A stretch of DNA of 60,198 bases, filler included. It is 6 parts of 6 records of this genome, joined end to end, with 100 filler letters (N's around TTAATTAATTAA, not from the genome) between each part and the next. Parts side by side here need not be neighbours in the genome. Positions count along the whole stretch, not along the records: positions 20,562 to 31,795 come from SRR2962707_439; 5 more parts are not named here. One strand, 5' to 3'. A program made the translations under genes and the position numbers. Below the pieces are notes generated by a model, which was not told the origin of the DNA, did not search any database, and saw nothing but the letters and a program-made list of their open reading frames with translations. Shown here in pieces: positions 20,462 to 50,896 of this stretch; the first letter of the stretch is position 1; every line of letters starts with the position of its first letter.

Positions 20462-20561
20462 NNNNNNNNNNNNNNNNNNNNNNNNNNNNNNNNNNNNNNN
20501 NNNNNTTAATTAATTAANNNNNNNNNNNNNNNNNNNNNNNNNNNNNNNNNNNNNNNNNNNN
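20462..20561. other. Artificial contig spacer
   Basis: N44-TTAATTAATTAA-N44 (stops in all six frames); composition changes across it. Confidence 0.99.
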
Positions 20562-20588
20562 TGTGTGTGTGTGTGTGTGTGTGTGTGT
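20562..20588. repeat. (TG)n microsatellite
   Basis: Perfect dinucleotide run at the contig start. Confidence 0.95.
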
Positions 20589-21222
20589 AAAGCCACAACA
20601 GCCTTTTGACATAGCCTGTACAAAAGTGGTCTTGCTTACACATAGCCTGTACACATGTCCGGCCTTTTTTGGAGAGGAGTCTGCCCGGTCTGCTCAGACA
20701 ATAGTCGCCCCGATGGGGCAGTATGGTTTTTCTGGGAAGAGCCGGCTATTGCGATTCACTTATCATGGAGGACCTTCCTTCTGAATGTTTCACATACATT
20801 ACCAGATTCAGAAGCAGCTCTGTATGGCGGAAGTTCTGATGGAGCGGCGCAATAGGGGGTGGGTGTACTTTTTCAATGGCTGAATGAGTATGCTACGCTG
20901 TAAGATGAATGAAGTCTAAGATACAATACAAGGAGATCTGGAGGTAATGCATCCTTCCTATTCGCAGAACAGAATGAATGTCGTTGTGTGTATGTCTGAG
21001 CCGTTTCAACTGTTGGTGGGCTCTCTTGTGAGAGTTTGCTGGTATGTCTGGTTCAAACACATTGGTAGTTGTTCAAAATACAATTTTAGTTGAGGTGCTT
21101 TATCGACACAAAGATTGTGACTTGGCTTCCGAAAGAGGTTCACTGAGCCACTTGGAAAAACGTGGTACCGGTGATGTTTTGACACAAATCACATCGTCTA
21201 CTGTTCTGCGGCTACAGCATGC

Positions 21223-24200
21223 TCAAATGCCTACCGGTACTTCGGGGGCACTTTGCGTTTTAGCCGGCTCAGCACTCCCGCTCTTCGAGCTAATCGGTGT
21301 ATCGTTGTCTTGTGGCTGTACTTTTGCAGAGGATACAGTTTGCTTTCGTTTGGCGTTGACGGCTACAACTGCAGCCACCACAGCAACCAGAACCGCTGCT
21401 ACGACGGCAGCGGATATTCCACCGACAACTTCGGCAGGTAGGCCTTCCTGGTCAATGCTGTTGGGGTTTAGCTGTGAAGTAGTTGTGTCTGCTGTGTGGC
21501 CATTGGTGGTCGGCAAAGGCGACAACGAGGGATCGGTCATAGTATCCCACTGCGCAACACACTGGTCCGCGGCAGTGGTTTGGTCCCAACCGACAATACA
21601 CTCGTCACATGCATCACCCGCATAACCCTTAAAACAGATGCATTCGGCAGTGGCAGGATGGCAAGTTCCACGATTGGCTGGGCAATTGGCACAGCGCTGC
21701 AGCACGAGGCCGCAATCTTCGACGCAACAGTCAATGGATGGATGGTCATAGCAGGTTTCGCCGCCCTGACAAACGCCATCTCCACAGTAGCCACCCAGCG
21801 AGGAATCAACGGACACCTGACAGTCGCTTCCACTGATGCACAGCGGAGTTGACAAAGTATAGTCGATGCCTGCACCAAACGCAACGACTTCGACAGTGAG
21901 GGAGATACCGCCGGAAACCCCGAGTAATCGCTGCCGTTGTTGTGAGGGCGAGCCTGCGTTGGTAGACCTGACGTCTTTGACGGTGCAATTCAAGCGGTTG
22001 GAAGCTGCGGTAACGTTTGCACAGACATCATCGATAAAGGCATCAACAACATCTGCACAATCACTGTCAAATAAACCAGCCGCGCAGGCAGCAGATATGT
22101 CACTACTTTCAATAGAGACTGCTCCTTCTACTGCACATGATGAGCCGTCACCGTCGCACATCCCACAACCGTCGAACGAACCCGACCAGCAGCAAGTGCC
22201 ATCGGGACTGAGTGCAGTGGTACAACACGCTCCATCTTTGGCAATTGCAATTGCTGAGCCACCGCAGACCCCACACGCGTCAAGCATGGACGCATCTCCT
22301 TCGCAACATGTGCCCGTGGAATCCAACACGAACATAGATCCTGAAGCAGCAGATTGCACGGCATCCTCGCAGCACTCGCCAAATTCGTCGCTGAGCCCGC
22401 TGGAGCAGCACTTGCCGCGGATGTTCTGAACACCTGATGCACAGGCTGCCAAATTAATTTGACAGTACGGTCCTGCAAATCCAGTCTCACACAAGCAAGC
22501 GCGTGCGCCGCATGTTCCGTGTCCACTGCACGGTGTGGTCGTGTTGCCAGTGGACGGCATGCAGAGGTGCGTGCAACCTTGCAGCATAGCTGTTGCGGAT
22601 GGACTGCATGTTCGTTCTTGCACTGGTGCATTTGACACATTTCCACACAATGACCAGTCGTCATATTCGATTGCCCTTTTGGCAGAATAGTCATAGCACA
22701 ATACCTCACGCCTTTGGATCGCGCTCTCACAGTAAGCACTGAAATTGGCGAGCATACAACTTGACCACTCGAGGGCTTTCCAACCAACAGACGGAGCACA
22801 GTCAAAAGTGTTGCACACTTCGCTTGACTTTGGCTGGCTTGCTGCGAGACCAGAGTGCATTTCGCATGGACTACTTCCATTCACTTCCGACACAACGCCA
22901 AGACAAGACTCACACGTGACTTTTCGGCTACGTGTGCCTCCACCGCACGTGACTGAGCATGCAGACCAAGCCGTTGTAGTCCAACTCCATCCGTTAGCTG
23001 CATCTGTCGCTGTGTAATCTGGATCACAAGCTCGGACAAGGTCACTACGGCTCGGCTCGGTTTCGATTTCGCACAATGAAGCGGCCGCCACCACGCCCTC
23101 GCTTGAAACACACTGCCACGTACGTGACTGCGTGTAACCACCCACTCCAGCACCGATGCAGGCAAACGAGCAGTCGCCAAAGTTGGAATAGCGAATGGTG
23201 TAGGTGACACAGCGAATATCGTTGCAGCTCTCTTCCTCTGATGGTCGCGGGTCTGCCAGTGCCAGCAAACACTGTGCATCATCAACTACGGGCCATGCAT
23301 CTATTGTAGTCCCAGCGCTCAGGTCAACGCGTCGACACTGCACGGTTCGACTTCGAGTTCCAGAACTTGGCCCGCACGATTGATCACAAGGGCCGAAGTC
23401 GCCAACTTCCCAGACAAGCTGTTGCGTACAATTCAGAAGTGTGGGAATGCACTCTTCGACGACTGAAATATCCACAACGTCGGCACATTCAGACATGTTG
23501 GCTTGACGCAAGCGAGGGACCGGTGTATATTCAGTGCGAACACTGACTGATGGTCTTGAAACACAATCTATCACAGGGAAAAAGTTCGCGTACTTGACAC
23601 CGTTATTGGAGGCCTGCAGCCGAGCTACCGTGTCGTCAGAAACACGATGAGTTCGATATTCACGACACTCTGTTTGTTCGACGTATTCGCAGCCGCTCAG
23701 AGTAAAGTTGGATTCGATGACCCACCAACCCGCTAAAAAACCATCGACCCAGCCATAGTCCCATCGATCAAGCCATTGGTTGTAATTGTAAAAAGCTTCA
23801 GCTTTGCCCCCCAAAGAGTCGGTGCAGTCACGCGATTGCCCGGACATGGCTGGGTTGAACACAGGAGCATACTGTCCCTCCGCGTGGGCTAATCTAGCGT
23901 CACGTTCTGTGCATTCTGAGGTGCGATTTCGCATACCAGTTGTAGAGCCACATGAAGCGGAGCAAGGACTCCACGCGGAGGTTGATACCTGGTACTTCGA
24001 TACAACAGAGAAAAAACTGCTAAAGTTGCTTCCACCTTCTCCCACCACTTCGAGCATATACGTGCGGCCAGGTTGGAGAAAACGGGGAACGCGAAAGCCG
24101 CCTGCTAATTTGCCAGTCTGTGGCACGTACAATCCTACAGTCGCCACCTTTGACCCACCATTGCACGATGGTCCATCCCACAAATATAGGTGTACACGTG

Positions 24201-27200
24201 ATCGCGAATTCATTCCAGTTGAATCCCATTCAATGTCGTAGTTGCCATCCACCACCCAAACAGTATTCACAGTTGGCTCAAGTACCGCCGGAGCTCCTAC
24301 AAAACTTGCAGGTACGTAAGCTGGCTCACCATTCCATCGGCTTGGACTATACTCCAAGACTCCATTACTGTTGACACAAACACTATCATCAGTGCGGTCC
24401 ACATCAACGTCCACATCGGCATGCTGGTTTTGAGATATAAAGTCCTGAAGGGCCTTCCACTTCGGTGCGTCGTGTCCTTGGCCAGTGAACTCCTGGTGCC
24501 CCCATGTTCCATACTTCGAGTATGCACCGGTCGAAGAAAACGCCATAAATGGCCGAGTGGCATTTGCAAGGCCGTACTTTGTTGACATCACCTCCAAAAA
24601 GTCTGTGTACCTGTGACAACCACCAACCACAAGGTTAACTCAAAACGCCCGTTGGAGGTCACAAAGCAAAACAAACATCCAGAAGTAAAAATATTTCTGT
24701 AATGCGGAATTTGCTTTTCTCACGAACACTGCAGCCATCCCGTCGTCTCGAGCAGTTGCAACAAGAAGCTCTGTGATGTGCCCATTGGCACTTCCACCTT
24801 CAATAACACCTGGTTCAACTAGTCCTGGTCCTGCCTCGTAAGTAATAACATCGACCCGCTGAACAGAATCGCCGCTGGTATTATGAAGTGCCACGTCACT
24901 GGTGGTAACGAAGGCAAAAATCTCAGCAAGACTGTTTCCAATGTTATCATTGTCGATGCCCGCGTCGCGATACTGTTCAACTGTTGACTCCAATGTAGCA
25001 AGCACTTGCTCGACAGAGTACGTGGCCCAACTTGAGTCGATTTCTGGCGTTGCACTGAGATAGCCTGTGACGCCAATGTAGTCTACCCAGCGAGCGGTAT
25101 CATTCCAAGACAGCATTTCTTCAACCCACGACTTCCCAGCGTACGTCCATGTCCCCAAAACCACTTTGAGGCGCCCCTCCTTTCCCCAGTCGCTTGTTAC
25201 CTTGCCTAAATCAAATAATTGGTGGGCAGTTTCATGCCACACTTGTGAAATTTCTTTAGATCGCTGGGCATTCCACCGAGCACGGTTGCATTGATCACCA
25301 TACAACTTGCAGCCCCCAGTGGCTGCCAAGGGCGCGCCACGAATTGTTGCGTACTGGCCTGCCGGAAACAGAGTATTCCAAACCTCATTGGAATACCTGC
25401 ATGTTACACATTTGTCGCAGACACACGATACGTCAACATCGGCACGGATCGACGATGCAGCCATTGGCATGCGTTTGACACACACAAGGTGACTTACTCA
25501 ACAAAAACTTTCGTATCTGAGCGTTTGTCCAGCTCAGTGAGGACCATTGTGGCCATGGCCCGAACATATGCATCATCGGCGGCGTGTGGTACGCAGTACC
25601 ATGCGTTAGCGCCAATAGTGTTCGTCAACAAAAGCGAATACTCAAACGCAGTACCGCCCGAATCGTGGTTGACTTGTGTTCGGTCAGATGGTAGTGTGCG
25701 CCTTTTCCACACAGGAGTAGAATTCACAGGCCAGCCATTCGTTGAGTGGAAGTCCATGAACCGCAGAGTCTGGAACCTGGACATGTCTTTCAAGAAAACT
25801 GGGTGGAACGGCTGTTGGAGATATGACTTTGCGTAATACTCACCAGGGAGCAGTATGCGGATGTTACGAGGCGGGTCTTTCACATCGATGGCTTCCCATG
25901 TGATTGCAACTCCATTATCAGTGCAGTAGGGTAGCCATCCTGCGCGGTCAAACCAGCACGCAGGATCGCACGAAAGCTCTACACGGACGTCAACACGGCC
26001 TTTTCGACGTGATACTATCATCGCGTCCATGCCTTCGAAGCTCAGCGTGCCGTTTCCGTCGAACAACACGGTGTACACTCCATTGGTGCCGTGATGACAA
26101 AGATCTCGTAATGTCAATGCAACGAGATTTTGACGCCGAGAGTTTAGACGCACCGGGTAACCCTTGCCTAACGTGTCTGGTGCAACAGCGATGGCAGCTG
26201 ATGAGTTGATATCACCATCATGCTGCCAGATGGGTTCGCCATTCCCCCACACATATTGACTTTCTTCATCACCCAAATCAGCGGCGTTGATGGACGTGAG
26301 ATAGCTCGAGTGTTTCATAACATCCACGAATATGCTCTCCAGCCCATACCCAACCTCACCAACGTTCATTCCCACGGGAGAATTGTAGTTCGGGCGCCGT
26401 GCGGCATCAAAAAATTCGCATGTCTGCCCAGAAAATCCTGCCCAACACTGACAAGCACCGTTTACGCATGTTCCTTGCTCTGAACACCCTCGATCACCAC
26501 AGCCACAGACTCCGGGGCCCACACAATCAGTTGTCAATGCGGAGTGACCACAGTCACACGACCACACACACGTTGCCTGATCACTGCTCCATTCCCACCC
26601 ATCGTCACAGATACATGGAACATCGCCAAGGTTGGCCTCACCAATCAAAACTGCAGGATGACACTGGCCATGTCCGTGGCAACCACAGTCAATCTGACAT
26701 TCATCGCCAGTAAATCCCGGGTAGCAACTGCAGATATCAACATCAAGGCAGTCACCGTTCCACGAGCAGTTTCCTTCACAGGTCGCGCGAGCACATGTAC
26801 GTCCAAAGTAGCCGTCACTGCAGTCACACCCATATAAGCGAAAGGACGGTGGCTCCGTATGGGCCACTCGGCAAGCTCCCCGGTCAAAAGAGCACTTGTA
26901 CCCACAGTCAAATTCATCAACATAGTGCACTACAGAGCAGTCCTCTCCCTCGAACCCAGTAAAACATAAGCATGTCGCTGCGGTGCCATCTAAGCACCAC
27001 CCGTTGCCACTGCCACACGTACCTCTCGTTTCCGCGGTGCACATGTCAATGAAGCGGTTCACACGGCGAATATCGTCAACGGAACAAGACAACTCGCGGC
27101 TGGTGTGACTAGCTGCATCCTCCCAAACTACATCCAAGATACCTTGGTACTTTGGAGCGGTCTGCGGATTCTGTGTGGAGCCTTCCAGTAACGACCAGCT

Positions 27201-30200
27201 CCCGTATTGACTGTATTCGCCAATTGTGCCAAAGTGCAGCGCTTTGTCCATTGTTTGCAAAACATGCCGATAGAACGTTGCTGTGAGATTGCGCATTCGT
27301 GGACTTCGATGAGCTGCGATAACCAAATCATCAGAGGCACCAGTGCTGAGCCCAGCAGGTCCACACTCATATGCAAGGACCCGAAGAGTTCCATTCGAAC
27401 GGTTGCGAATCAACGCGGCGTGCTCTGCAGCACTCACAATTGTTGATGGCATGAGTTCCCAAAGCTGATCTAGCACAGCTTCAGTGGAAGCAGCAACGTT
27501 CTCCATCGCTGGGCCAAAATATATGGCAGGCCCGATGGCGTCGATCCCGCCTGCAAGACCTTCTTTGCGAGCGCTTCTGTTCCATTCAGAATCTGGTGCT
27601 TTCGTTGGCATCGGGCCAAAATCACAATCTTCGAGAATGTGCCGTGTGACATCAACATTACTCAGTTGAGTGGACAAAAAAAACTGAAGACGCGGAAGTT
27701 TGGTAACCGATGACTCAGCTTGCAAGTCACTGAACACGCCTCTCATGGTCGCACTTGCGTTCCGCGTTGCCTCAACTGCCCAACAATGCCTTGATGGCAA
27801 GCCTCTCCGCGTAGCTTCCAATGCTGCGTAGTCTCCACCAAAGAAACCTGTGTGCCACAGTTCATTGCCAACTTCTATCACGACCTCTACATCGGGTCGA
27901 AGCTCTCTTGCTAGCAGGTGTGCCAGCCCTGTGTAGTAGTTTGTTGTTGCTTCCACGGGCGTATTGATCCATAGATCTTTTCCAAGCAAGTTAGCAGTCA
28001 GTACAATGTACCTAGTTACAACATCAACATATTTGCATGGCCAAACTGAACGAATTGTTGCCGCGTAATTCAACTCTTGAACAACAAACCCGAAGAGGAG
28101 ACAACACGTCACAGCAACTCAAACCCAGGTTTGGAACTTTGAGTGAGTGCTGCGGTCACGTACTCAAGTGGAATACCACCCGGACCTGTCACAACGCGGT
28201 TCCGAAAGTCTGGTCTTCCATTCCAGTTAGGATCTGGTTGACCTTCTTCATTGGCATGCATCCAGTCCATGAATCGTAGATGCCCAAAGGGTTCTAGAAA
28301 CTGCAGGAAATGTGGATGGAACGGTAAAGCAGGCAATGGCCCGTGTAGTAGTTGACCATGTGTCACCACGCCGTGCTGCCGTAGACGGCCTTCCTTATCT
28401 GTGGTGTTGTATGTGCTTTGGGTCGCTACCTCGTCAGTTTCTGCTGCCGCCCACTCACCTTCGTCGAACCCGGGGAGAAACGCACGGATGTTTCGTACTG
28501 GATCTGCAGGGTTTGTAAACAGAATTGTGACAAGTAGGCCATTGTTGAGTTCAGATGTGAAAACCACGTCACATTCCATATACCCAGCCAGTTCGTCGGT
28601 GCGCGCGCGCACGACCCCGTCACTAGCCACGTCTAAACCCGCGCAGCTTAAAATTCCATCACCATCCCAGCGAATTACAAACTTTCCATTGACTGTGCCA
28701 ATCTGCTCCAGGTCCCGCATCACAAGAGATTGAATTTTCTCGTTGGTCCCGAGCTGGCGGGGGTACCCGTGGACGTCAAAATCGACGTCAAAGTTTTCAT
28801 CCCACACGGAATTGCCGTAGTGATATTGTTCAACCCAATCACCCATTACACGGTAAACATCAGTCAAAACAATGCCAGTCGAATAGTAGTTCAGGCCACT
28901 CAAACCAACACCAAGGCGAGCGCTGACGTTTTGTGTGTCGCAACGTCCACCTTGAGAATCGGCCAGGTCAATGTTGGCGCAAGTGGAACCCGAGAATCCA
29001 CGGAAGCATGTGCAAGTTCCATTGATGCAAATACCCTGTCGTACGGTGCATGAATTATTGCACCCGGCAACAATTCGTGGCACCACGTCATCAGATGTCA
29101 CGGGAAAGTTGCTTGGAGCTGTACCAGTCTCCGAAATCGCTTTCAGTGGCGCGGAGGGGTCTGTAGCAAAGTCTGTCAGCGCTTTCCATAAAGGAGAATC
29201 CCAGTCAAGCCCTTCATTGTCACTGTAGTACGAAACTGTCTCATGCCAAGCGTCGCGATCCGCTTCAATTTCGTCAGGTGTAAGTCGGCTGGCATTCCCT
29301 CCACGAACGCTGGAAAATATCTGCGACAGATCTGTCACCGATGCTGAAGATGAAGATGGACTGCCACTACTGTCAGTAGAAAAAAACACTTCCTCAGTGG
29401 CATTTGCGGCGCGTGGACGCACAAGGCCAGTGATGCCGCAGTCTTTCCCCCCAGTTGGGCAAGTGTGGACAGGTCCAACGTCAAAAAGATTGGCGACCAC
29501 ACCTCCACTGCCAGGAAGACGTGACCAACGGCGCAGCAGGTCAAGCGCCAAGTCATGACCAACCAACCAGGATCCCCCAAGAGCAACCAGTCGTGCCTCA
29601 AGTTCGGCTTCAAGACGATCCATACCAACGATATCAAGCCAATATTGTTCCAACTGCTGGATATTCCATTCAAAGGGTTCTTGACCGCTGTTCACTAGCG
29701 TACCATAAAGACCATCTGCCCGAGCCTCTTCCGAGACCCGTCGAAGGCCGCTGGAAGTCCAAGAAATACAACCATGGGTACTATCGTACAGCGCCTGCAT
29801 CTCGGTCGCCGAGGCAAGTTCATCTTCGCCCAAGCCGCCACGAACAACAGCATCCACAAACCACTCTGGACGAACAAAACAAGAGCCCACCCCTTCAGGT
29901 GGAGCGAAGTTGCCACCTTCCTGCGCGTATGATTGGATATTCGTGTGTGGATCGGATAAAAATGTACAACTGCGATTACTTTTTCCCGGTGGCAGGTAGA
30001 ATCCCCCGCATTCAGTAGCATTCATTCTACTGCACAAGCCTGCACATACTGGCGCGTCACGGAGGTCTGCACCTTCACCAATTGCAATGTTGGAAATCGA
30101 TGCGGCCACATCTTCCGTGACGGGCATTGCGTTAGCACAATTGAATTGTTTCTGCTCATAGTACGTGGACAGATCTGGATCGTTGGCTGTCCATTTGGCA

Positions 30201-31714
30201 AAGGTGGTTTCGTATGATTCGGCGAATCCGAGCCGCTCTTGAAAAGCGAGGCGGCACTGCTTAGCGTACGAAAGTGACCAGCGCCACCCGTACCCAGCAG
30301 CCCGAAGCCCGTCGTCGAATGTGGCAACTGCAGTGACTGTGTGCTGCAACGTGTCATTGTAGTTGTCTCGAAGGAAACCTAAGTAGCCAAGAAGGGGTAC
30401 CATTTGCTCCTCTGCGTACAGCTCAGCATTCCGTACAGCGGCAACCAATTCTGCATCTGAAGCATTGGCGTACGTAAAACCACCCTCCCAGCTGTCAAAC
30501 GAATCTCGAGGCTGTGCACCAGCCAACTCCAAGCGCGGTGTTGTCATCACAACCGTAGAGTTTCCTCTTGGATCGAACCACAGCGGCCATGCAGCAGCGG
30601 TATGACTGTAGTAGTCGCCGGCTACAACAAAGACAAGCCGGTCAGCGGGTCCGTGGAAACGACCACCATCAGCTTCACGGGTTTGCCAAGTGGAGTGCAT
30701 TGCATTCGTCCAAATGCGGAACAATAACTCAGACTGCTGCTGTTGTCGGTCGAAGTTACCAAAGGATTTTGTCCACCGATGCTGCAATAACACGCGTAGG
30801 TCCGAGCCTAAACGCTGCGCAACAAACGCGGCTGCGTTATTAGCATAGTCATCACTTTCATCTGCTAGATCTGGTAGCGTCAGCCAGGCGTCAGCTTCGA
30901 CCTCATTGCACAAGTTCACAATGTGGTCCAGTGCGACACCGTACGGTAAGCGCTTCGAGCCTCGCTGTGTCTGCTGAGCAATGCGTGGTCGATCTGTCCA
31001 TGAGCGACCCGCCAAATTGTTTGGATTATAGTCGTTGTCGTCAATGCCAAACCAACCGTGGAAAATAATGGTGTTGAAAGGGGCTAAACGTTCCAAAAAA
31101 TCGGGATGGAATGCACTGGCATTTCCCGCACGCACAGCTTCTTCAAAATCCAGAGGAACAAGGCGTATAAGGGTCACAGGATTGGACAACGAAGACCGAA
31201 GAATTCGGATTTTGAGCCCATGCGCAGGACGAATTTGAAAGACCAATCGCCCTGTAGATGTCTCAAGTGGAAGAGAAACGTTGTCCGCAGGAGCTGTTTG
31301 AACATGAGAACCTGCGGTTGGCAGTGCCACAGCGTCGCCGTCCAACGCAACAACACCATCCCCCTCGAAGAGGCACACATATTCGCCAGCAGGGAGGTTC
31401 GCTCCGCCTTCCCCAATTGTGGCAGCCACCGTCATGATTTTATCGCGGTTGAAGTCGCTCTCGTTTTGTAGGCCAAGCGGGTAGCCATCGGCGTCGAAGG
31501 TCGGGTGGTATGCCGAATTGTATTCGGTGCCGAAGGTTTTGTACGTCTGCCCGCCGTCCTCCGACAAACCCCACTCCACTGAAAACTCGGAGCTGTGCTG
31601 CATGAGGTCAAGAAATACGTTGACATTCGTGGAGGAGAAATCCACTCCCGATGTTGGATGAACACCAAGCGGGGCCACGCTCACAGCCACTATAGGCGGC
31701 GAAGGGCTCGCCGC
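21223..31714 (-). CDS. Giant spliced eukaryotic type-I membrane protein: 3 glycoside-hydrolase-like modules, EGF repeats, 5 TSP1 repeats, Cys-rich repeats, TM helix (5' incomplete)
   Basis: Predicted exons 31714-28164, 28011-25498, 25396-24728, 24610-21223. GT-AG introns join four ORFs in frame (10122 nt, 3373 aa plus stop) and restore the motifs GIPLE|YIVL, VFVE|YSNEVWN and MAAV|YTDFL. Further 3' exons are possible. Confidence 0.8.
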
Positions 31715-31795
31715 CTGCACAATCCAGAAAGTGGAGGACAATGCAAAAATTAGTGGGAATAGAATAACATGCCTGTCCGTTGAGACCGACCTTCG

Positions 31796-31895
31796 NNNNN
31801 NNNNNNNNNNNNNNNNNNNNNNNNNNNNNNNNNNNNNNNTTAATTAATTAANNNNNNNNNNNNNNNNNNNNNNNNNNNNNNNNNNNNNNNNNNNN
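31796..31895. other. Artificial contig spacer
   Basis: N44-TTAATTAATTAA-N44. Confidence 0.99.
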
Positions 31896-31907
31896 CTTCA
31901 TACCTAT

Positions 31908-31942
31908 TGGGCCCGAGAGCAATCTCGCGGCCCATTTTTTTT
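31908..31942 (+). terminator. Intrinsic terminator of a gene upstream of the contig start
   Basis: TGGGCCCGAGA-GCAA-TCTCGCGGCCCA hairpin followed by T8. Confidence 0.7.
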
Positions 31943-32031
31943 GGCCGGATTTCACTTCGTATTCTCGCCCGCCTGGACAGAGGGCGGTCTTGTCCATCGC
32001 AGCCCCTCATTCCCAGTCAGAACAATGACCG

Positions 32032-32074
32032 GGCCACCCCTTTTGGATGCCGTGCTGCAATCCAGGGGGTGGCC
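32032..32074. terminator. GC-rich hairpin downstream of the epimerase gene
   Basis: GGCCACCCC...TGGAT / ATCCA...GGGGTGGCC inverted repeat, 17 nt past the stop codon on the minus strand; no strong U-tract. Confidence 0.45.
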
Positions 32075-32090
32075 TAGGCCCTTTCAATAT

Positions 32091-33140
32091 TCAGGCCGAT
32101 AGTCCCGCACGGTCCGATACATTGACAGCCGGAACCGGTTTCGAAGCGACCGGTTCTTCCAGACACCCAAGACTGCTCAGCGTTTCGCGAACCGCCTGAT
32201 CAAGCGGCGTATGCGGCTCGGCGCCAAGGAACGCCACCAGCCTGTCATTGCGCATATGCAGCGGCTTGCGCCAAAAGTAGCGCATTTCCAGCAGCTCGCG
32301 GAAAACTGGCACGAACGGCGCGGCCAGCCACAGCATCCACCAGGGAAACCGTTTTGTGCGCAACCACGGCCGGCCGGTCACCCGCCGTATCGCCTCGCCC
32401 AATTGCGCACCATCGTGATCCCACACCCCTTCCATGTGGAAGCGGGCGAAGGCAGGCAGCTCTGCGCGCTCAACTAGCTGCACCATGGTTTCGGCAACAT
32501 CGGGCAGATAAGCCCATTGATGTCCGGCGCCCGGGTCTGACGGGTTGGTGATCGCTTTGACCGGGACACCGGGTTTGATGACGGCCTGCGCAAACCAGTT
32601 GTTGCCGGCACCGGGCCCGAAGAAGTCCCCTGCCCGCACTAGAATCACCTGCACGCCCCGCCTCGACGCCGCTTCGAGCCGCTCTTCCAGCTTGACGCGG
32701 ATCTTGCCCTTGTAGGTCAACGGCTGCTGCGAACTGTCCTCGTGGATGGTATCAAACACCTCCGGCCCATAATTGTAGATCGTCCCCGGCATCAGGATGC
32801 GCGCCCCCACAGCCTCCGCCGCAGCGATGGTGCTCTCGATCATCGGCAGCACCAGCGTGCCCCAGTTGCGATATCCGGGAGGGTTGACCGCGTGGACGAT
32901 CAACTCGACGCCCTCGGCAGCCGCCACCACGTCATCCCGGTTCATCGCATCGCCGCCAACCCATTCGTACTGCGGTGTCTTTTGCGCCTGCGTGGCTGCG
33001 TCGCGGTGCATTGCCCGAACGGTGTAACCGCGCCGCAAGAGCTTTTCGGCGACAGCGCTGCCCACTCCGCCGGTTGCACCAAGCACGAGCGCCACCTTCT
33101 TGCCAGGTGCTGTCAGTGTTTGTGTCATGTCATTGGTCAT
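32091..33140 (-). CDS. NAD-dependent epimerase/dehydratase (atypical SDR)
   Basis: LGATGGVG Rossmann motif, HAVNPPGY, RAGDFFGP, WAYLPD. Confidence 0.9.
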   Translation of the reverse strand: MTNDMTQTLTAPGKKVALVLGATGGVGSAVAEKLLRRGYTVRAMHRDAATQAQKTPQYEWVGGDAMNRDDVVAAAEGVELIVHAVNPPGYRNWGTLVLPMIESTIAAAEAVGARILMPGTIYNYGPEVFDTIHEDSSQQPLTYKGKIRVKLEERLEAASRRGVQVILVRAGDFFGPGAGNNWFAQAVIKPGVPVKAITNPSDPGAGHQWAYLPDVAETMVQLVERAELPAFARFHMEGVWDHDGAQLGEAIRRVTGRPWLRTKRFPWWMLWLAAPFVPVFRELLEMRYFWRKPLHMRNDRLVAFLGAEPHTPLDQAVRETLSSLGCLEEPVASKPVPAVNVSDRAGLSA

Positions 33141-33233
33141 GTCTGATCTCCATCGGTTGTGATGGCCTGACTATGATCCAGATCCATACTAACCGGAATT
33201 GCGCATTATCCTTGAGTTGCTATACAATAATGC

Positions 33234-34145
33234 ATGACCATGCTTTCGCTCGACTGGGATCACTACAGGACTTTCCTCGCAATCCTCCAGGAAGGATCTC
33301 AATCAGGTGCCGCGCGCGCGCTAGGGCTGACCCAGCCGACCGTGAGCAGGCACCTTGATGCACTGGAACTTGCGGCTGGCAAACCGCTGTTCCTGCGCTC
33401 CTATCAGGGATTGCTGCCGACGGAGACGGCGCTGAGCATGCGCACCTATGCCGAAACAATGGCAGCCAGTGCTGCCGCACTGGCCCGCGCCGCCTCGGGG
33501 GACAGTGCAAACCCCGAAGGCACGGTGCGCATCAGCGTCAGCGAGGTGATCGGGCTCGAGGTGCTGCCGCCCATCCTGGCTGAGCTTCAGGAGCGTTATC
33601 CGGGCCTCACAATCGAGCTGTCGCTCTCCGATGCCGTCGAAGATCTGCTCAAGCAGCAAGCCGATATTGCTGTGCGCATGGTGGAACCAACACAAGGGGC
33701 ACTGGTCAGCCGCAAGATTGGCGGCATTCCAATCGGCGTGTTTGCCCATCGTCGCTATCTTGAGCGGCACGGCTTGCCGGAAACGCTTGAAGACCTGGCC
33801 GGACACCGGCTGATCGGTTTCGACCGCCAGCTCGCCTATGTCCGGGAAGCCATGAAAGTTTACCCGGCCATGGCCGAGGTGCATTTCCATTTCCGCTCCG
33901 ACAGCAACGTCGCTCAACTGGCGATGATCCGCGCCGGAGGCGGCATCGGCATGTGCCAGGTTGGGCTCGCCGCCCGCGATCCGGATCTGGTCCAACTCTT
34001 GGCCGGGCAGTTCGATATGCAACTGATGACCTATCTGGTCATGCACGAAAACCTGAAAATGGTCCCGCGCTGCCGGGTTGCCTTCGATGCGCTTGCAGAT
34101 GGCTTGCTTGCCTATCGTGGTACAGTAGACGGCCTCAACTCCTGA
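33234..34145 (+). CDS. LysR family transcriptional regulator
   Basis: GSQSGAARALGLTQPTVSRH HTH; substrate-binding domain; divergent from the epimerase. Confidence 0.93.
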   Translation: MTMLSLDWDHYRTFLAILQEGSQSGAARALGLTQPTVSRHLDALELAAGKPLFLRSYQGLLPTETALSMRTYAETMAASAAALARAASGDSANPEGTVRISVSEVIGLEVLPPILAELQERYPGLTIELSLSDAVEDLLKQQADIAVRMVEPTQGALVSRKIGGIPIGVFAHRRYLERHGLPETLEDLAGHRLIGFDRQLAYVREAMKVYPAMAEVHFHFRSDSNVAQLAMIRAGGGIGMCQVGLAARDPDLVQLLAGQFDMQLMTYLVMHENLKMVPRCRVAFDALADGLLAYRGTVDGLNS

Positions 34146-34227
34146 AGCGCTCGGGATTTTTTCGGCCGCCTTTGAACCAGATCGTTGCCCACCGCCACCT
34201 ATACGTATCCGAACAAGGACACAATGG

Positions 34228-34779
34228 ATGCGCACGAAGCAGCAATTGGCCGAGGACTATCTGGTGGCCGGCGCCCGATTGGGCAGCGACAGCGCCATTG
34301 CCAAGCTGGCTGTTCTGCGTGGACCCGGCCTGTTTCGCCATGCCATGCGGCTGCTCGGCAATTCCGACGATGCCCATGACGCGGTTCAGGAGGCATGGAT
34401 CGAGATCATCAAGGGTCTGCCGCGCCTGCGTGACGACCGGGCCTTTGCAGCCTGGGCCTACCGGATTCTGACCCGGCGCGCAGCACGGATCATCTCGGTT
34501 CGGATCAGGGACCGCAATCAGATCAACGACACCGCTCAACCAGACGATGTCAGCGTGCCGGAATCCGGTTCAATGGCCGCCGACGCCCATGCCGTTCGCC
34601 AGGCGATCAAGGCGCTTCCGCCGCCGCAGGCTGCAGCCATATCCCTGTTTTACCTTGAAGACATGAGTATTGCCGAGGTCGCCATTGCCCTCGACGTGCC
34701 ACCCGGCACCATCAAGACCCGTCTGATGCATGCACGGGCAAAACTGAACAAAGCCCTGAAAGGAGACCTCGATGAGTAA
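34228..34779 (+). CDS. ECF RNA polymerase sigma factor
   Basis: DAHDAVQEAW, FAAWAYRI, EVAIALDVPPGTIKTRL. Confidence 0.92.
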   Translation: MRTKQQLAEDYLVAGARLGSDSAIAKLAVLRGPGLFRHAMRLLGNSDDAHDAVQEAWIEIIKGLPRLRDDRAFAAWAYRILTRRAARIISVRIRDRNQINDTAQPDDVSVPESGSMAADAHAVRQAIKALPPPQAAAISLFYLEDMSIAEVAIALDVPPGTIKTRLMHARAKLNKALKGDLDE

Positions 34780-35134
34780 GCTCGACCAACTGATAGAAGA
34801 AGCACTGTCGGACCAGGACAAGGAGATCATGCGCGAAACCCGGGAACTGGGCTGGTTCGCGCTTGGCGCCAGCCAGTTTACCGGAAAACTCGGTTGGGTG
34901 TCGTGGGTCTTGATGATCACGCAAACCGCCCTGTTTCTGCTGGCGGTCTGGACCGGATGGCAGTTCTTCGCAGCAACCGACGTGCTGGCCGCTCTGAAAT
35001 GGGGTCTGCCCGCAGCCACTCTGATGATTGTCGCGACCATTCTCAAGACCAGCCTCATGCCTCAAATGCAAGCCGACCGGATCATGCGTGAACTCAAACG
35101 CGTCGAACTGATGATTGCACACAGGAACGTGTGA
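34772..35134 (+). CDS. Small 2-TM membrane protein, putative anti-sigma partner (DUF6768-like)
   Basis: Overlaps the sigma factor stop; MSKLDQLIEEAL, two TMs, RELKRVEL. Confidence 0.75.
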   Translation: MSKLDQLIEEALSDQDKEIMRETRELGWFALGASQFTGKLGWVSWVLMITQTALFLLAVWTGWQFFAATDVLAALKWGLPAATLMIVATILKTSLMPQMQADRIMRELKRVELMIAHRNV

Positions 35135-35329
35135 CCCTTTTCTCGCGCGTCCCGTGCCAGCCACGGGGAGAAACGCCGAGCGGGTCTGTGCACACTTCCC
35201 GGCCTGTCCCGGCCGGGCAGTGATCCACATGCTTCCGGTGTCCGTACAGATATCGAGTTGCAAGGCATCATGGAACTTAAAGGCCGCTGTTTTGTTATAG
35301 TGCGTCGTTCCATGATCACGAGGGCCGAA

Positions 35330-36274
35330 ATGCGCATCACCATGATACTCAATCAGGACGGCGGTACCATTCGGGGAATGGACGCAAAGGAATTTGGCGA
35401 CATGGCATGCGCCAGGCTGTCAAAGCGCGGTGAAGAGTGTGTGCTTCGCCTGGTCTCGGGCAAGGATCTTGTCAAAACCCTCAATGAGCTGGCAGACGAC
35501 GCGGAAACCGGAACCATCGTGGCCGGCGGCGGCGACGGCACGATCTCAGCGGCAGCCGGTGTCTGCTTCAAATCGGGCAAGACCCTGGGCGTGTTGCCGA
35601 TGGGCACGATGAACATGTTTGCGCGCAGCCTAAGCCTCCCCCTCGACCCAGCCGAGGCGCTTGATGCATTGGTTGAGGCCGATGAAATGCCGCTCGACAT
35701 CGCCACCGCCAATGGCCGTCCCTATGTGCATCAGTTCTCGGTCGGCCTGCACGCCCGCCTGGTCCATCAGCGGTCGAGGCTCGACACCTCGACGCGGCTG
35801 CGCAAGATTACCTCGACCATCCAGTCGCTCGGCCGGGTAATTCTCAATCCCCCGCGCTTCGGGGTCGAGATCGATACCGGTTCAGGACGGACCCGCCAGA
35901 TCGTGTCAGCCGTCTCCGTGTCCAACAACCTGTTCGGGGATACGCCGCTTGCCTATGCGGCAGCGCTCGACGAAGGGATCCTCGGCGTCTACCGCTCACG
36001 CGCGCTTGAACCCGGCACGGTCTTCCGGATGACATTGCGCGCGGCTATCGGCAAACTCAGGGAAGACCCTGATATGAGCGTCGAGCCGGCGCTCAAGGCC
36101 ACCTTGAAGTTCCCCAATGCCCGCGGCGGTTCGAAAGCCGCGATTGACGGCGAGATCATACCGCTCGAGCAGGAGGTGGAATGCATCTGCCATCCCGGCG
36201 CATTGCGAACCCTTGTTCCCAAATCCTATGCAGCCAGTGTCGCCGAGCGCGCGCCCGAGCTGAAAACGGGATAG
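35330..36274 (+). CDS. Diacylglycerol kinase family lipid kinase
   Basis: GGGDGT, LPMGTMNMFARSL, IDGE motifs. Confidence 0.88.
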   Translation: MRITMILNQDGGTIRGMDAKEFGDMACARLSKRGEECVLRLVSGKDLVKTLNELADDAETGTIVAGGGDGTISAAAGVCFKSGKTLGVLPMGTMNMFARSLSLPLDPAEALDALVEADEMPLDIATANGRPYVHQFSVGLHARLVHQRSRLDTSTRLRKITSTIQSLGRVILNPPRFGVEIDTGSGRTRQIVSAVSVSNNLFGDTPLAYAAALDEGILGVYRSRALEPGTVFRMTLRAAIGKLREDPDMSVEPALKATLKFPNARGGSKAAIDGEIIPLEQEVECICHPGALRTLVPKSYAASVAERAPELKTG

Positions 36275-36380
36275 GCCCGCAAAGGCCGTCTCAGCCTGAA
36301 AGGAAATTCTCCATGACACTGCAGTTTTGGCCCACGTCCAGCCCCGCCCGGAAGATCATCAAAGCCAGCGTGGCCGCTCA

Positions 36381-36785
36381 ATGATCCCGGCGGGCTTTCT
36401 CAAGGCATGGGCCGGAACCGCAGTTTTCCTTCTTGCCATCGATGCAGTCTGGCTCGGCCTTGTCGCCAGGGGATTTTATGCCCGCCAGCTTGGCGACCTG
36501 ATGCTTGACCAGCCGCGCCTGTCCATCGCCGCCATCTTCTACGTGATGTATTCCGCGGTCGTGGTCCTGCTTGCGTCCGCACCGGCCTTCCGTTCAGGCT
36601 CACTGCAGGATGCGCTGATGCTGGGCGCCATCCTCGGATTTGCCGCCTACGGCACCTACGACATCACCAATCTCTCAACGCTGAAGAACTGGCCGCTGAT
36701 GATGAGCCTTGTCGACATGGCCTGGGGAACTCTGCTGACCGCGGCCGCCGCCGCAGTGGGCTTCTGGATGTTGCGCTGGGTTTGA
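36381..36785 (+). CDS. DUF2177 family membrane protein
   Basis: IDAVWLG, YGTYDITN, DMAWG motifs. Confidence 0.85.
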   Translation: MIPAGFLKAWAGTAVFLLAIDAVWLGLVARGFYARQLGDLMLDQPRLSIAAIFYVMYSAVVVLLASAPAFRSGSLQDALMLGAILGFAAYGTYDITNLSTLKNWPLMMSLVDMAWGTLLTAAAAAVGFWMLRWV

Positions 36786-36789
36786 AATG

Positions 36790-36819
36790 AAAACGGCCGC
36801 CCCGAACAAGGGCGGCCGT
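36790..36819 (-). terminator. Terminator between convergent genes
   Basis: ACGGCCGCCC-N7-GGGCGGCCGT with a T run on the minus strand. Confidence 0.7.
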
Positions 36820-36864
36820 CATTCCAGGATCAGGGCAAACTTGGCACCCTGTTAGCAGCTGAGC

Positions 36865-37297
<433 letters not shown>

Positions 37298-37397
37298 NNN
37301 NNNNNNNNNNNNNNNNNNNNNNNNNNNNNNNNNNNNNNNNNTTAATTAATTAANNNNNNNNNNNNNNNNNNNNNNNNNNNNNNNNNNNNNNNNNNNN
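37298..37397. other. Artificial contig spacer
   Basis: N44-TTAATTAATTAA-N44. Confidence 0.99.
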
Positions 37398-37420
37398 CTC
37401 TCTCTCTCTCTCTCTCTCTC
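37398..37420. repeat. (CT)n microsatellite
   Basis: Perfect dinucleotide run at the contig start. Confidence 0.95.
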
Positions 37421-37595
37421 TTTTCTTGGTCTCCCGTCCTCACGCGTAGAGACTCCTCCGCGCCCTCGCGTCGCGCAAAAGATCTCTGGGAGCTTCGTGA
37501 AGCGTGTCTTTTTGTCAATTTCGTTGACGTGCGTTCTGGGACAATAGGAGTTCGAACAAACCCAGAAACGAACGGCAAAAGAAAAAAAATATATA

Positions 37596-40218
37596 ATGGG
37601 GCGCACAAGCAGTGCTCCAGCCCTGGCAGCTTTAGCTTTGTTGACTGCTGCAACGGGGAGGACTGATGCCGTATCTTACTATGTCTCGAACTCTGGCAAC
37701 GACGCTGCAGACGGTCTTTCACCGTCCACTGCATGGCGCTCTCTCACTCACGCGAGCACAGCTCGACTGTCGGGCGCCAACGACAGCCTCCTCCTTGAGC
37801 GCGGCTCGATATTTGCAGACGACTTTTTGACGCTGGCGTTCCCCACTGGAATCTTGGGCGCGTATGCCAGTGCCAATTCCAACTCGTCAGCAGCACTTTC
37901 ACAGCACTGGACGAAGCAGGCAGGTCAGCCGCAGCCGCGACCGCAAATTGTGCGTCGCTGGGCACCAGGCCCTGTGAGTTGCGTCCAAGTGATGAATCCC
38001 GACGGATTCACAATTCAAGACATCCATTTTGCGGGCTGCTCACAAGGGCTAGTTATCGAAGTGACTGCTGGGGCCAATGTCAGCGATGTCACGCTCGAGA
38101 ACAACTTCTTCCGCGACATTCGTGCCATTGATCAAGTTTACAACCCATCCAAGAGCACATGGGGAACAGCCATTGTTCTTGGTGGGGGTGGTACCCTGCA
38201 CAATTTCACGGCACTGCACAACGTCGGAATCCGAATGGACACTTTTTTTGGGATGAAAGGCGTTCAAATTGATGGTTTAATCCTTGACAGCAATACAGTT
38301 GCCAAGTGCGGCTTCAATTGCTACTTGATTGCTCAGGGAAACGACATGCGTTTGCGCAACTCGGTATTTTTACATGACACCTCGCCCCGGTTGTTTATGT
38401 ACGGAACCACTGATGTGATTATTGGCTCAGTCACGGGTGACAATGCAATTGAGGTATGTGGCGCCCCATGCTACCTGGAACTGTTCTAACAGCACACGAT
38501 GGTTTGTGTGACGACTGCCGCTGTTTGTTGTTGTTGGGGTGGGGTAGAACTGCGACTTCAATAGTCGGGGTGAATATGAAGCAGGTCCTGATGGCTGTGC
38601 CATCGATTTTGAAACGTCTGCGACTGGGTTTCAAATCGTAGAAAACACAATCTACCGCAGGTATTTTTTCAAGCCTGTGCTCTATTTCGTGAGCAAGCGT
38701 GCACATTTGAGTCGAGTGTTGTCAACTTTGGGCCTATTCCACGTGCAACTGATTTTTGGATGGCGTGCAACTATTGCCTCTGTTGTGATCTGATCACCGG
38801 TGGAAAAAGTTGGGGCGGTGGCATTATGGTTTTTGGGCATGAGACCACATCGCATGATCTCAACCTTACTGGAAACAATTTCATTTACGCTGGATGTGTG
38901 CAGCCGCGTGGGGATCGTGCAGGAATCGCGTTCATGTGCCCCGGCGGACACAAGCCGAATGGCACAGTAGCCAACAACAACTTTGCCACTTGTAATGGAG
39001 TACCAGCAATGTCTGATCAAATCCCCAACTGCAGCAGGTTTGTAGACTGTGCAGTTACTAACTGCTCAGTGCGAGAGGAGAAGGCCCAACAAAAAGTGTG
39101 GGGGCATTGCTTGTTTTCTCCGAATCAAACATTTGTTTGGTTGCATCTTGGCCTATGTAGCGAAATGATCAAGACGAACAACCGAATTGACGACGGTTTG
39201 GTTTTTGCCGAAGAGCCACAGATCTCCTTCAGCCCGCCAGGTCCAGAATCAGGCGCTGTAAGTCATGGATTGAAAGCTCACGCAGTTCATCAACGTGCTA
39301 ATGGCGCAGCTGAAAATGTTTTCTGTTTTTTTGTCTCGATTTTGTGACGTTCTATTCCAGCCCGTCGTGACCATCCCCACACTCGCTTCATGTGTGAGCC
39401 CAAACGTGACACTTCGGTACACAATGGATGGATCACGGCCGACCGCTTCGTCTCCGGAAGTTCCCGTGGCCGGGGTGCCAATTCAGTGGCCTGGCGACAG
39501 TATTGTTTTCAATGTGAAAGCTTTTCCTGTGCCAGGATCCGACATTCTCCCAAGTGTGACCAACGGTGAGTTGTTCTCAATACACGACTGACGGTTCCGG
39601 ACAACAAGACACAACGCAATGGTGCCATGCAGCATCGTGTATTCCGCTTTTGCTCACCGTCGAATCTGTTGTTGGATGCCTATTTTGTACCGGTATGCAG
39701 GGGTCGTGATTGAACGCTACAACTACCGGCCCAGAACCGGGTTTGGGCCTTGGCCGCACGATTGCGAGTTGGAACAGGCTGTGGATTCAGTGTCGATAAA
39801 TGCCACGACGGGTGCAGTAGCGGCTGCTGGTTGGGTCGTTGACGGATGCTCGACTGATCATTTGGGAACGCCCCCGGCATCCATCCAACTCCGAGTGGAT
39901 ATGGTCCCAGATGTCACTGTGGTCGCCAACAGCTCTCGGTGCGAATTGCAGCAGAAGTCGTGTGAAGGTGAATGGAGCTCTTAAAGCTATGCCCTTAGTT
40001 TAGAAGCCTGTGCTTTGATTGACTGTAGGCCCGATCTTGTACCAAAGGAAGCGCCCAATCCTGAACACGGATTTAACGTCCAGGTTTCTAGTGAAGCCCA
40101 AGCGCGTCTCCTAGCTAAGGGCAAGCATGTTCTGGACATTTGGGTCGTGGACTCTCCGCTAAGTCCTCAAAAGATTCAAACACAGTGCTTTTGCGACGGA
40201 GACCTGTGTGATTGCTGA
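37596..40218 (+). CDS. Spliced eukaryotic secreted right-handed beta-helix protein with Fn3-associated/chitobiase-C domain and a bacterial-type C-terminal repeat
   Basis: Predicted exons 37596-38453, 38548-38660, 38810-39037, 39161-39257, 39361-39565, 39701-39938, 40029-40218 (all GT-AG, 1929 nt, 642 aa). Signal peptide, YYVSNSGND.ADGLSP.TAWRSL, LRYTMDGSRPT, ANSSRPDL...HGF. Confidence 0.8.
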
Positions 40219-40355
40219 CTGTGATGACGACAACACTCGGCGCGCACAACCTCGGACAGCGATTATGCTAAACAATTACTCATGTGCCAATAAGTATCGA
40301 CTTTTGTTGGCAAACTTGGACGCGACGAGCCTGCGCGAATGGTCAGTCGTAGATT

Positions 40356-44632: not shown

Positions 44633-44854
44633 CTCGCTTGTTCGCTAGTCTGAAGGCGGAAAGCTCACGGTTGGCACAACGGTGATTCTCGGAGTGTGGA
44701 GGCCAAAGTGAAGAGGAACACGAAATTCTTGAAGTAGTCTCTGTGACTTGTTTCCGATTGTTTTATGGCGTCCAGCCCGCAAAGCCTCGAATAAAAACTA
44801 AATTCCAAATTCCAAAATCCCAACAACAACAACCCTGAACAACACAACCCTGAA

Positions 44855-44954
44855 NNNNNNNNNNNNNNNNNNNNNNNNNNNNNNNNNNNNNNNNNNNNTT
44901 AATTAATTAANNNNNNNNNNNNNNNNNNNNNNNNNNNNNNNNNNNNNNNNNNNN
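44855..44954. other. Artificial contig spacer
   Basis: N44-TTAATTAATTAA-N44. Confidence 0.99.
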
Positions 44955-45001
44955 TGTTCCGCGTTGTTTCGACGCCCGGGTTCGATAAGGACCCACTCTA
45001 T

Positions 45002-45033
45002 AAGAGCCACCCACATGGGTTGGCTCTTTTTTT
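45002..45033 (+). terminator. Intrinsic terminator (possibly bidirectional)
   Basis: AAGAGCCACCCA-CA-TGGGTTGGCTCTT plus T run. Confidence 0.75.
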
Positions 45034-45063
45034 ATGGCTCTCTTTTTATCAGGGCTCTATTGA

Positions 45064-48020: not shown

Positions 48021-48021
48021 G

Positions 48022-49734: not shown

Positions 49735-49832
49735 GCGTGTCCAGTCAGGTGCTCAGGCGGAGCTTGCGGGAGCCGCCATCGGGCTCCCCGGCTATCGCGG
49801 TATCATACCGCCCGGCTCCCGGGGCTGTCATC

Positions 49833-50796: not shown

Positions 50797-50896
50797 NNNN
50801 NNNNNNNNNNNNNNNNNNNNNNNNNNNNNNNNNNNNNNNNTTAATTAATTAANNNNNNNNNNNNNNNNNNNNNNNNNNNNNNNNNNNNNNNNNNNN
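50797..50896. other. Artificial contig spacer
   Basis: N44-TTAATTAATTAA-N44. Confidence 0.99.

Follow-up and report, generated by a model that had tools for sequence, protein, structure and literature searches.

A giant surface protein of a microbial eukaryote with two apparently intact copies and one degenerate copy of a bacterial-type module predicted to form clan GH-A barrels

Introduction

The stretch of DNA considered here (the window, 60,198 nt with its spacers, made of six contigs joined end to end) holds on one of its contigs, SRR2962707_439 at positions 20562-31795, a minus-strand gene for a protein of more than three thousand residues. A preliminary description, drawn from the sequence, proposed that four open reading frames (ORFs) splice into one protein of a microbial eukaryote carrying three homologous, bacterial-type glycoside-hydrolase (GH) modules on a stalk of adhesive repeats. 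This raises the question of whether such a gene is genuine and, if it is, what its modules are, where they came from and what they might do at a cell surface.

The observations presented here establish a genuine, spliced gene from a microbial eukaryote, which apparently transcribes it. Its product is a giant type I surface protein, the topology being read by eye. We hold with moderate confidence that it is a membrane ecto-glycosidase of a probably unclassified clan GH-A family, with two apparently intact barrels and a degenerate one.

Results

The gene and its introns

The four minus-strand ORFs meet at 28109-28118, 25494-25497 and 24639/24640. Joining the exons across three introns with GT..AG borders gives a single frame of 3,400 codons with one terminal stop. 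The parts of the gene are:

28164..31795, minus strand: exon 1, cut off by the contig end, with the start Met 12 codons farther upstream, outside the contig
28012..28163, minus strand: intron 1, 152 nt, GTACGT..AG, phase 2
25498..28011, minus strand: exon 2
25397..25497, minus strand: intron 2, 101 nt, GTAAGT..AG, cutting the VEYSNEVWN acid/base motif of module 3
24728..25396, minus strand: exon 3
24611..24727, minus strand: intron 3, 117 nt, with a weak donor (GTTCGT..AG), holding the in-frame stop 24640-24642
21223..24610, minus strand: exon 4, with the stop codon 21223-21225 included

An ORF in the database (P0003), 100% identical and located on a different contig of 1.56 Mb, extends the frame upstream by MRRSMADLMHWC, 12 residues that include the start Met, which brings the protein to about 3,412 residues; the preliminary description had expected at least 3373. 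The splicing that it proposed is borne out by a contig of 10,369 nt from a public run (X1), which covers 24400-28300 with zero differing letters and omits exactly 117, 101 and 152 nt, with borders CT..AC on the plus strand and thus GT..AG on that of the gene. Since the length of the X1 contig equals the span 21135-31873 minus the 370 nt of the introns, there is no room for more of them. In addition, an ortholog (P0156, 3,237 residues) is 54% identical over model residues 35-3294 and is colinear over all three junctions (LEY/IVL, FVE/YSNEVWN and AAV/YTDF, the slash marking the junction).

These data bear directly on the possibility that the feature is an artefact, either a chimeric or contaminant contig or a frameshifted bacterial gene. 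Such an origin would be in keeping with a window that mixes contigs of several organisms, with the nearest prokaryote genome found (G001), which has 31% of the window k-mers in common, and with a module family that is mainly bacterial. Yet an independent contig lacks the three breaks, with each excision falling exactly at GT..AG, the same ORF recurs on the 1.56-Mb contig, the full-length ortholog and named eukaryotic relatives (see below) have the same layout, and G001 has no match to the gene region. We therefore regard an artefact as highly improbable: the contig does not belong with the bacterial part of the assembly, but the eukaryotic gene that it carries is genuine.

Three homologous modules with a predicted clan GH-A fold

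The gene includes three copies of one module, whose coordinates and principal motifs are:

29156..31711, minus strand: module 1, a full-length degenerate barrel copy with a large insertion (BLASTP, family profile, hhalign)
29957..30046, minus strand: Cys-rich PAN/apple-like stretch in the insertion of module 1 ('PAN-like' by eye)
27108..28939, minus strand: module 2, interrupted by intron 1, with 11 of 11 family-invariant residues kept
27852..27878, minus strand: IEVGNELWH of module 2, predicted Asn-Glu acid/base after barrel strand 4
27357..27374, minus strand: AYECGP of module 2, predicted nucleophile Glu on barrel strand 7
24421..26405, minus strand: module 3, interrupted by introns 2 and 3, with 11 of 11 family-invariant residues kept
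24826..24843, minus strand: TYEAGP of module 3, predicted nucleophile Glu

Modules 2 and 3 align end to end (BLASTP E 5.5e-32, 26% identity over ~600 residues) and the first ~300 residues of module 1 match modules 2 and 3 with E values of 2e-12 and 3e-10. An alignment (A1) was made of module 3 of P0156 and 59 smaller homologs picked from the bacterial-size matches, and the family profile derived from it scores modules 1, 2 and 3 at 134.7, 349.9 and 404.0 bits. Like the BLASTP values, these scores are far above chance, and the homology of the three modules can be taken as described.

The module resembles no family represented in the collections searched. No Pfam match at E<=0.1, NCBIfam match or PDB-sequence match covers any copy, and no GH Pfam family reaches E<=0.1 on the four ORFs. 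Searches of PDB sequences with ORF1 and ORF2 gave EGF-type or chance matches only, and the family profile found nothing relevant at E<=10 among 177,635 PDB sequences. NCBIfam (searched with the ORFs and A1) and PHROGs (searched with A1) recognised accessory domains only and left the module unmatched. GH51, GH79, GH39, GH5 and GH1 gave no significant sequence-profile or solved-member match, and the second half of module 1 had no usable match in the Atlas.

The fold was predicted with A1 for module 3 of P0156, whose identity to module 3 of the window is 65%. The model (mean predicted local distance difference test score, pLDDT, 85.3; predicted template modelling score, pTM, 0.90) is a clan GH-A (beta/alpha)8 barrel. 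All the matches listed by Foldseek for it are glycoside-hydrolase structures, of families GH51, GH10, GH26, GH1, GH5, GH164, GH79, GH2, GH50 and GH42, which we take to belong to clan GH-A; with a best E of 1.4e-6 and template modelling scores of 0.36-0.45, the similarity is remote. The model was also compared by VIA-align with 48,161 representative chains. The nearest structures are GH51 alpha-L-arabinofuranosidases (1pz2, 3ug3, 2vrk), then GH79 (5bwi, 5l77, 5la7) and GH39 (5jvk, 1w91, 4zn2) members, all at 10-13% identity. Members of these three families have a C-terminal beta-sandwich, whereas the modelled module ends after its last helix and appears to have a beta subdomain inserted after strand 1, represented by an all-beta segment at ~98-191 of the model as read from the DSSP string only.

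A predicted catalytic set kept in modules 2 and 3 and lost in module 1

Eleven columns of A1 are invariant in all 60 sequences (R219, E259, W273, P277, E307, N310, E311, W313, Y419, E480 and G482), and modules 2 and 3 of the window both read REWPENEWYEG at these positions. In the model of the P0156 module the Arg lies on the RFMD strand (217-220), N310-E311 just after strand 304-308, Y419 within strand 413-420 and E480 within strand 473-483. If the N-terminal GxN strand (17-20) is counted as strand 1, the strands bearing or preceding Arg, Asn-Glu, Tyr and Glu are numbers 2, 4, 6 and 7, which is the classic pattern of clan GH-A known from GH5. The motifs quoted in the preliminary description (IEVGNELWH, VEYSNEVWN, AYECGP, TYEAGP and LRFMDW/F) are all there, and its assignment of acid/base and nucleophile glutamates in modules 2 and 3 agrees with the ortholog model. 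The acid/base Asn-Glu at strand 4 occurs in module 2 (NELWH) and module 3 (NEVWN) and is absent from module 1; the nucleophile Glu at strand 7 is found in YECGP and YEAGP of modules 2 and 3, where module 1 has FDDG.

Module 1 differs in other ways. The family profile matches it only at profile positions 29-283, up to the start of the acid/base motif, and the changes include R to I, E259 to D, EYSNE to QHRWT and YE to FD. In an alignment (A2) of the first modules of 13 proteins, the window protein and 12 relatives, Asn-Glu is kept in none and the nucleophile Glu in one (P0028); the window protein and P0156 have Asp at the latter position. A comparison of A2 with A1 by hhalign nevertheless gave a probability of 100% (E 2.5e-69) over 453 columns spanning the whole barrel, from which we conclude that module 1 is a complete, diverged copy. 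It also has the large Cys-rich insertion noted above (a relative, P0024, has a PAN_1 match) and keeps a C-terminal SPLWKALTDF, the counterpart of APKWKAL in module 3. Of the three glycoside-hydrolase modules originally claimed, therefore, two carry the catalytic set and the first is a full-length copy that does not.

The strict maintenance of the catalytic set across deep divergence, beside a copy that has lost it, argues from sequence conservation that modules 2 and 3 would be working enzymes. They could instead be glycan-binding pseudo-enzymes, the whole protein serving as an adhesion or sensing receptor by analogy with alpha-Klotho, whose two GH1-like domains are used without hydrolysis. 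This seems unlikely to us, as all eleven invariant residues are present in modules 2 and 3 of the window and in nearly all full-length second and third modules of the 49 relatives described below, a retention over deep divergence that would not be expected if catalysis were dispensable, and as module 1 illustrates how quickly these residues go once selection is released.

Bacterial relatives of the module

The half of module 2 encoded by exon 2 was used as query in an exhaustive HMMER search of 1.84 billion cluster representatives, which gave 1,759 relatives at E<=1e-3; of these, 187 reached E<=1e-10 and 15 reached E<=1e-30. The best matches are proteins of 1,300-3,300 residues; in Pfam scans of 15 large relatives, EGF-type domains were present in all, Kre9_KNH in four and TSP1 in two. 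Below these come proteins of 460-900 residues, bacterial-type in 24 of the 25 scanned, with a single eukaryote-type fragment (P0036) that has an EGF domain. No GH Pfam family was detected at E<=0.001 among the 15 large and 25 small relatives. Fifteen of the small ones are without any Pfam family and the others show accessory domains only (a type IX secretion system tail, FlgD_ig, PA14, CBM60, dockerin, PKD and Calx-beta). The species genomes of GTDB contain 604 confirmed relatives, mostly in Planctomycetota, Verrucomicrobiota, Armatimonadota and Lentisphaerae, with some in cyanobacteria (Acaryochloris marina).

The bacterial homologs have the same module from end to end, with the same invariant residues. 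Residues 25-519 of the bacterial protein P0004, for example, are 31% identical to module 3 (E 7e-53) and 28% to module 2 (E 1e-39), over ~550-600 residues, and match module 1 in part, so that 'bacterial-type' is an apt description. In contrast to the eukaryotic protein, the homologs carry only one module within their 460-900 residues, together with bacterial secretion or anchor domains, and are free of EGF, TSP1 and introns. In the Atlas the bacterial clusters are automatically named 'cellulose-binding protein family protein', a name that no Pfam family backs, and the clusters of ten bacterial homologs are named 'hypothetical protein' only. One Atlas cluster of single-module homologs, with 91 members, is labelled 50% 'Viruses, Uroviricota'; PHROGs has no match to the module.

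The surroundings of the bacterial genes were sampled at 10 loci examined widely (61 ORFs) and at 37 further loci (73 nearest ORFs). In the wide set, Wzy-like and glycosyltransferase genes occur at two loci, GH27- and GH78-like genes with a LacI regulator at one, and beta-helix proteins at two, one of which also has GHL10 and BNR-repeat proteins. The nearest neighbours at the 37 loci include five polysaccharide-synthesis genes (GT4 twice, WbsX, a flippase and a sulfotransferase), three sulfatases, an apiosidase-like GH and a beta-helix protein, the remainder being unrelated.

These contexts are relevant to a further alternative, in which the live modules would be transglycosylases that build or remodel the cell's own glycan coat in the manner of the fungal GH72 Gel/Gas enzymes. 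The Kre9-like domain of the stalk that could speak for it barely passes its cut-off of 24.6 bits (25.1 bits), no GH72 member appears in the top structural matches, and beyond the homologs next to synthesis genes there are others that lie beside sulfatases or glycosidases or have the dockerin and CBM domains typical of degraders. We consider this improbable.

Origin of the eukaryotic modules

The tree was computed from 92 module sequences over 497 columns. Of its rows, 39 are eukaryote-type (modules 2 and 3 of 19 proteins, the window protein included, together with a fragment); the other 53 are bacterial, a random draw from 78 loci and 78 stored proteins. With IQ-TREE (LG+C20+F+G4), all eukaryotic modules lie on one side of a branch with a support of 99 in the Shimodaira-Hasegawa-like approximate likelihood ratio test (SH-aLRT), and FastTree gives the same grouping of eukaryotes and bacteria. 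The labels module 2 and module 3 change twice on 38 rows, where the minimum is one, and the window's modules 2 and 3 sit in their respective clades. This pattern would fit a single origin of the eukaryotic module and a duplication of modules 2 and 3 older than the sampled lineages.

The exception is P0023 (modules at 725 and 1483), whose second and third modules pair together rather than joining the two clades, as might result if gene conversion or a recent re-duplication had taken place in its lineage.

A family of three-module proteins

The layout of the window protein (degenerate module 1, module 2, EGF, module 3) is shared with 26 other large proteins. The stored proteins of more than 1,300 residues number 49, counting the window model and some near-duplicates; 27 of them have a partial first module and two full ones, seven have two full modules and 15 are truncated or different. 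Volvocine algae contribute many members, in Chlamydomonas schloesseri (HYH02_002845), C. incerta, C. reinhardtii, Volvox africanus, V. reticuliferus, V. carteri (VOLCADRAFT_95837), Pleodorina, Gonium (GPECTOR_53g111), Astrephomene and Tetrabaena. Others are found in Mesostigma viride, the cryptophyte Guillardia theta (GUITHDRAFT_80080), the dinoflagellate Durusdinium trenchii and the stramenopile Bicosoecida sp. CB-2014 (A0A7S1CNJ1). A partial two-module member (P0219) is filed under the snail Batillaria attramentaria and may be a contaminant or a true animal member.

These named relatives have the same core, with modules 28-44% identical and often a Kre9-like domain, whereas the C-terminal stalks vary: TSP1 in the window protein, PA14 and TSP1 in the bicosoecid, REJ in volvocine algae and WW in P0006. 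The latter has the same three-module ectodomain and three WW domains at residues 2922-2950, a hint of cytoplasmic signalling or adaptor binding in some members.

Members are annotated as 'hypothetical', 'EGF-like domain-containing', 'PA14 domain-containing' or 'Tenascin-X' only. The preliminary description had not recognised the architecture as one already described. A search of open PubMed Central and bioRxiv full text, with supplements and subscription journals outside its range, indeed found no paper naming the proteins or the architecture; on the other hand, the family is widespread and not peculiar to this organism.

One candidate identity for the volvocine relatives, the ciliary coat protein FMG1B, was rejected. 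In the passages of its description that were considered, Chlamydomonas FMG1B is built of ~34 beta-sheet structural repeats (BCRs), and no barrel figures there (bioRxiv 10.1101/2024.09.28.615573). On this account, the mucin-like FMG1 family would differ from the window protein in having beta-sheet repeats in place of barrels, EGF and TSP1.

Signal peptide, stalk and membrane anchor

Outside the modules, the protein has the following parts:

31712..31765, minus strand: hydrophobic core of the predicted signal peptide, ILFPLIFALSSTFWIVQA (by eye)
28979..29062, minus strand: single EGF-like repeat between modules 1 and 2 (Pfam, Cys pattern)
26418..27041, minus strand: EGF-like array, four repeats by Cys pattern, teneurin-type by Pfam (PF23106, 32.4 bits)
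24004..24276, minus strand: Kre9/KNH-like Ig-like domain right after module 3 (25.1 bits, cut-off 24.6)
22606..23973, minus strand: five TSP1 repeats of ADAMTS type (Pfam)
22462..22563, minus strand: EGF-like repeat (Pfam, Cys pattern)
22126..22281, minus strand: two D.CG.C.G Cys-rich repeats (sequence)
21607..21693, minus strand: membrane-proximal EGF-like repeat (sequence)
21358..21423, minus strand: transmembrane helix GGISAAVVAAVLVAVVAAVVAV, then KRK (by eye)
21226..21357, minus strand: cytoplasmic tail, 44 residues

The count of five TSP1 repeats comes from four stretches matching PF19030 (E 3.5e-22, 78.9 bits) and one TSP_1/CCN-type match (PF00090, 27.5 bits). A Ser/Thr/Pro-rich linker separates the last EGF repeat from the transmembrane helix, and the whole protein has 38 N-x-S/T sequons. 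The stalk is thus much as first described, with EGF repeats, a Kre9/KNH Ig-like domain and five TSP1 repeats recognised by Pfam, the D.CG.C.G repeats, one transmembrane helix and a short tail. An RQRLL motif noted at the same time is present in the window protein; we give it no weight because it is not conserved in P0156. The likeness to ADAMTS proteins is limited to the TSP1 and Cys-rich parts, and no Pfam match to a reprolysin-type metalloprotease or disintegrin domain was found in the four ORFs.

The remainder of the window

Five spacers, each N44-TTAATTAATTAA-N44, split the window into six contigs:

Contigs: 1-20461; 20562-31795; 31896-37297; 37398-44854; 44955-50796; 50897-60198
Spacers: 20462-20561; 31796-31895; 37298-37397; 44855-44954; 50797-50896

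The G+C content rises across the spacers from 33% to 50-64%, and the gene is alone on its 11.2-kb contig of ~50% G+C. Because the window was made by joining separate contigs, the sequence on either side has no relation to the gene and is uninformative about it. The first contig (1-20461; 33% G+C) has dense prokaryote-type genes (MoeA, XdhC, a sugar transporter, radical SAM/DUF3641 and a methyltransferase) and is probably the part of the window common to G001. Three others, of 56-64% G+C, also have bacterial-type genes: a LysR regulator, an epimerase and a diacylglycerol kinase on 31896-37297, a DinG-like helicase and a GspA-like AAA_22 ATPase on 44955-50796, and an HpcH aldolase, an acyl-CoA dehydrogenase and a major facilitator superfamily protein on 50897-60198. 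The presence of both low- and high-G+C bacterial-type contigs beside a eukaryotic gene indicates an assembly that mixes at least two bacteria with the eukaryote. The contig 37398-44854 (~50% G+C) has long ORFs without Pfam match (for example 42248-44644, 798 residues) and might come from the same eukaryote as the giant gene. A (TG)n microsatellite at 20562-20588, at the extreme end of the gene's own contig and downstream of the gene, is probably the cause of the assembly break there.

Discussion

If the protein is a membrane ecto-glycosidase, its parts would work together as follows. The signal peptide would send the ~3,412-residue protein into the secretory path, one C-terminal helix and a 44-residue tail would anchor it in the predicted topology, and a stalk of ~1,000 residues (Kre9-like Ig, five TSP1, EGF and Cys-rich repeats) would hold the three barrels off the membrane. 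All three modules may adopt the (beta/alpha)8 barrel of clan GH-A, interrupted after strand 1 by an all-beta subdomain. Modules 2 and 3 keep the predicted catalytic set (Arg of strand 2, the Asn-Glu that follows strand 4, Tyr of strand 6, Glu of strand 7 and a Trp near strand 8) and would be glycosidases of the retaining type, or else transglycosylases, that act on a glycan outside the cell; module 1 would have a role in binding or folding without being catalytic. Bacteria would have supplied the module family once, its tandem duplication preceding the split of the sampled eukaryotic lineages. The occurrence of the family in phototrophs as well as in a bacterivore argues against prey digestion as the sole role and for a surface or matrix glycan. 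A receptor that binds or degrades polysaccharides, as the preliminary description has it, is one putative role.

Several points weigh against this picture. The signal peptide, transmembrane helix and topology are by-eye readings. The fold was predicted for the module of an ortholog and not for the window's own sequence, and the placement of the two glutamates is known from the strand assignment of that model rather than from coordinates. No activity data were found for any family member, and the 47 bacterial neighbourhoods are mixed, with no recurrent partner and no consistent clue to a substrate. The family, judged here by Pfam, NCBIfam and PDB sequences, may already carry a CAZy GH number. 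The trees are unrooted quick searches, and two proteins were relabelled after the first of them, P0173 as eukaryote-type because it is a fragment of the P0008 cluster and P0035 as bacterial because it has only bacterial accessory domains; the direction of transfer, from bacteria to eukaryotes, is drawn only from the far greater diversity and the simpler architecture of the bacterial proteins. As for splicing, X1 was the only public run found to contain the sequence and its library type is not on record, RNA being a guess; were it DNA, its contig would instead represent a DNA copy lacking the introns.

A broader proposal can be put forward tentatively, as one that we think could well prove wrong. 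The module would be the catalytic domain of an unrecognised or uncharacterised GH-A family, and its eukaryotic form an ancient, pan-protist ecto-enzyme with one dead and two live copies, acquired once from bacteria, triplicated before Archaeplastida, Cryptista, alveolates and stramenopiles split (or spread among them), and acting on a surface glycan common to free-living flagellated cells.

The finding amounts to a module of predicted clan GH-A type without Pfam, NCBIfam or structural representation, found in a conserved three-copy membrane protein. At least 1,759 clusters are without a Pfam, NCBIfam or PHROGs model or a solved structure, and since the module has the predicted hallmarks of retaining glycosidases this may amount to a sizeable blind spot in the annotation of bacterial and protist carbohydrate enzymes. 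The fixed pairing of one dead with two live copies provides a natural case for how pseudo-enzyme domains persist beside active ones. The role of the family is open to direct test, since it occurs in model algae (Chlamydomonas, Volvox) that are routinely mutated and tagged.

Among known systems, the closest analogy in design is mammalian lactase-phlorizin hydrolase (LPH), a type I ecto-enzyme in which non-catalytic N-terminal GH-A domains precede two active homologous ones, followed by a transmembrane helix and a short tail. LPH has four GH1 domains and no EGF/TSP1 stalk, and its N-terminal domains are cleaved off as a pro-region; the window protein has three modules without a GH1 Pfam match and an EGF/TSP1 stalk, and, unlike the case of the LPH pro-region, we know of no cleavage. 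alpha-Klotho (5wi9, among the structural matches) likewise spans the membrane once and carries GH-A barrels in tandem, not all of which are catalytic. In Klotho a catalytic Glu has been lost in both domains, whereas two of the three modules of the window protein keep both.

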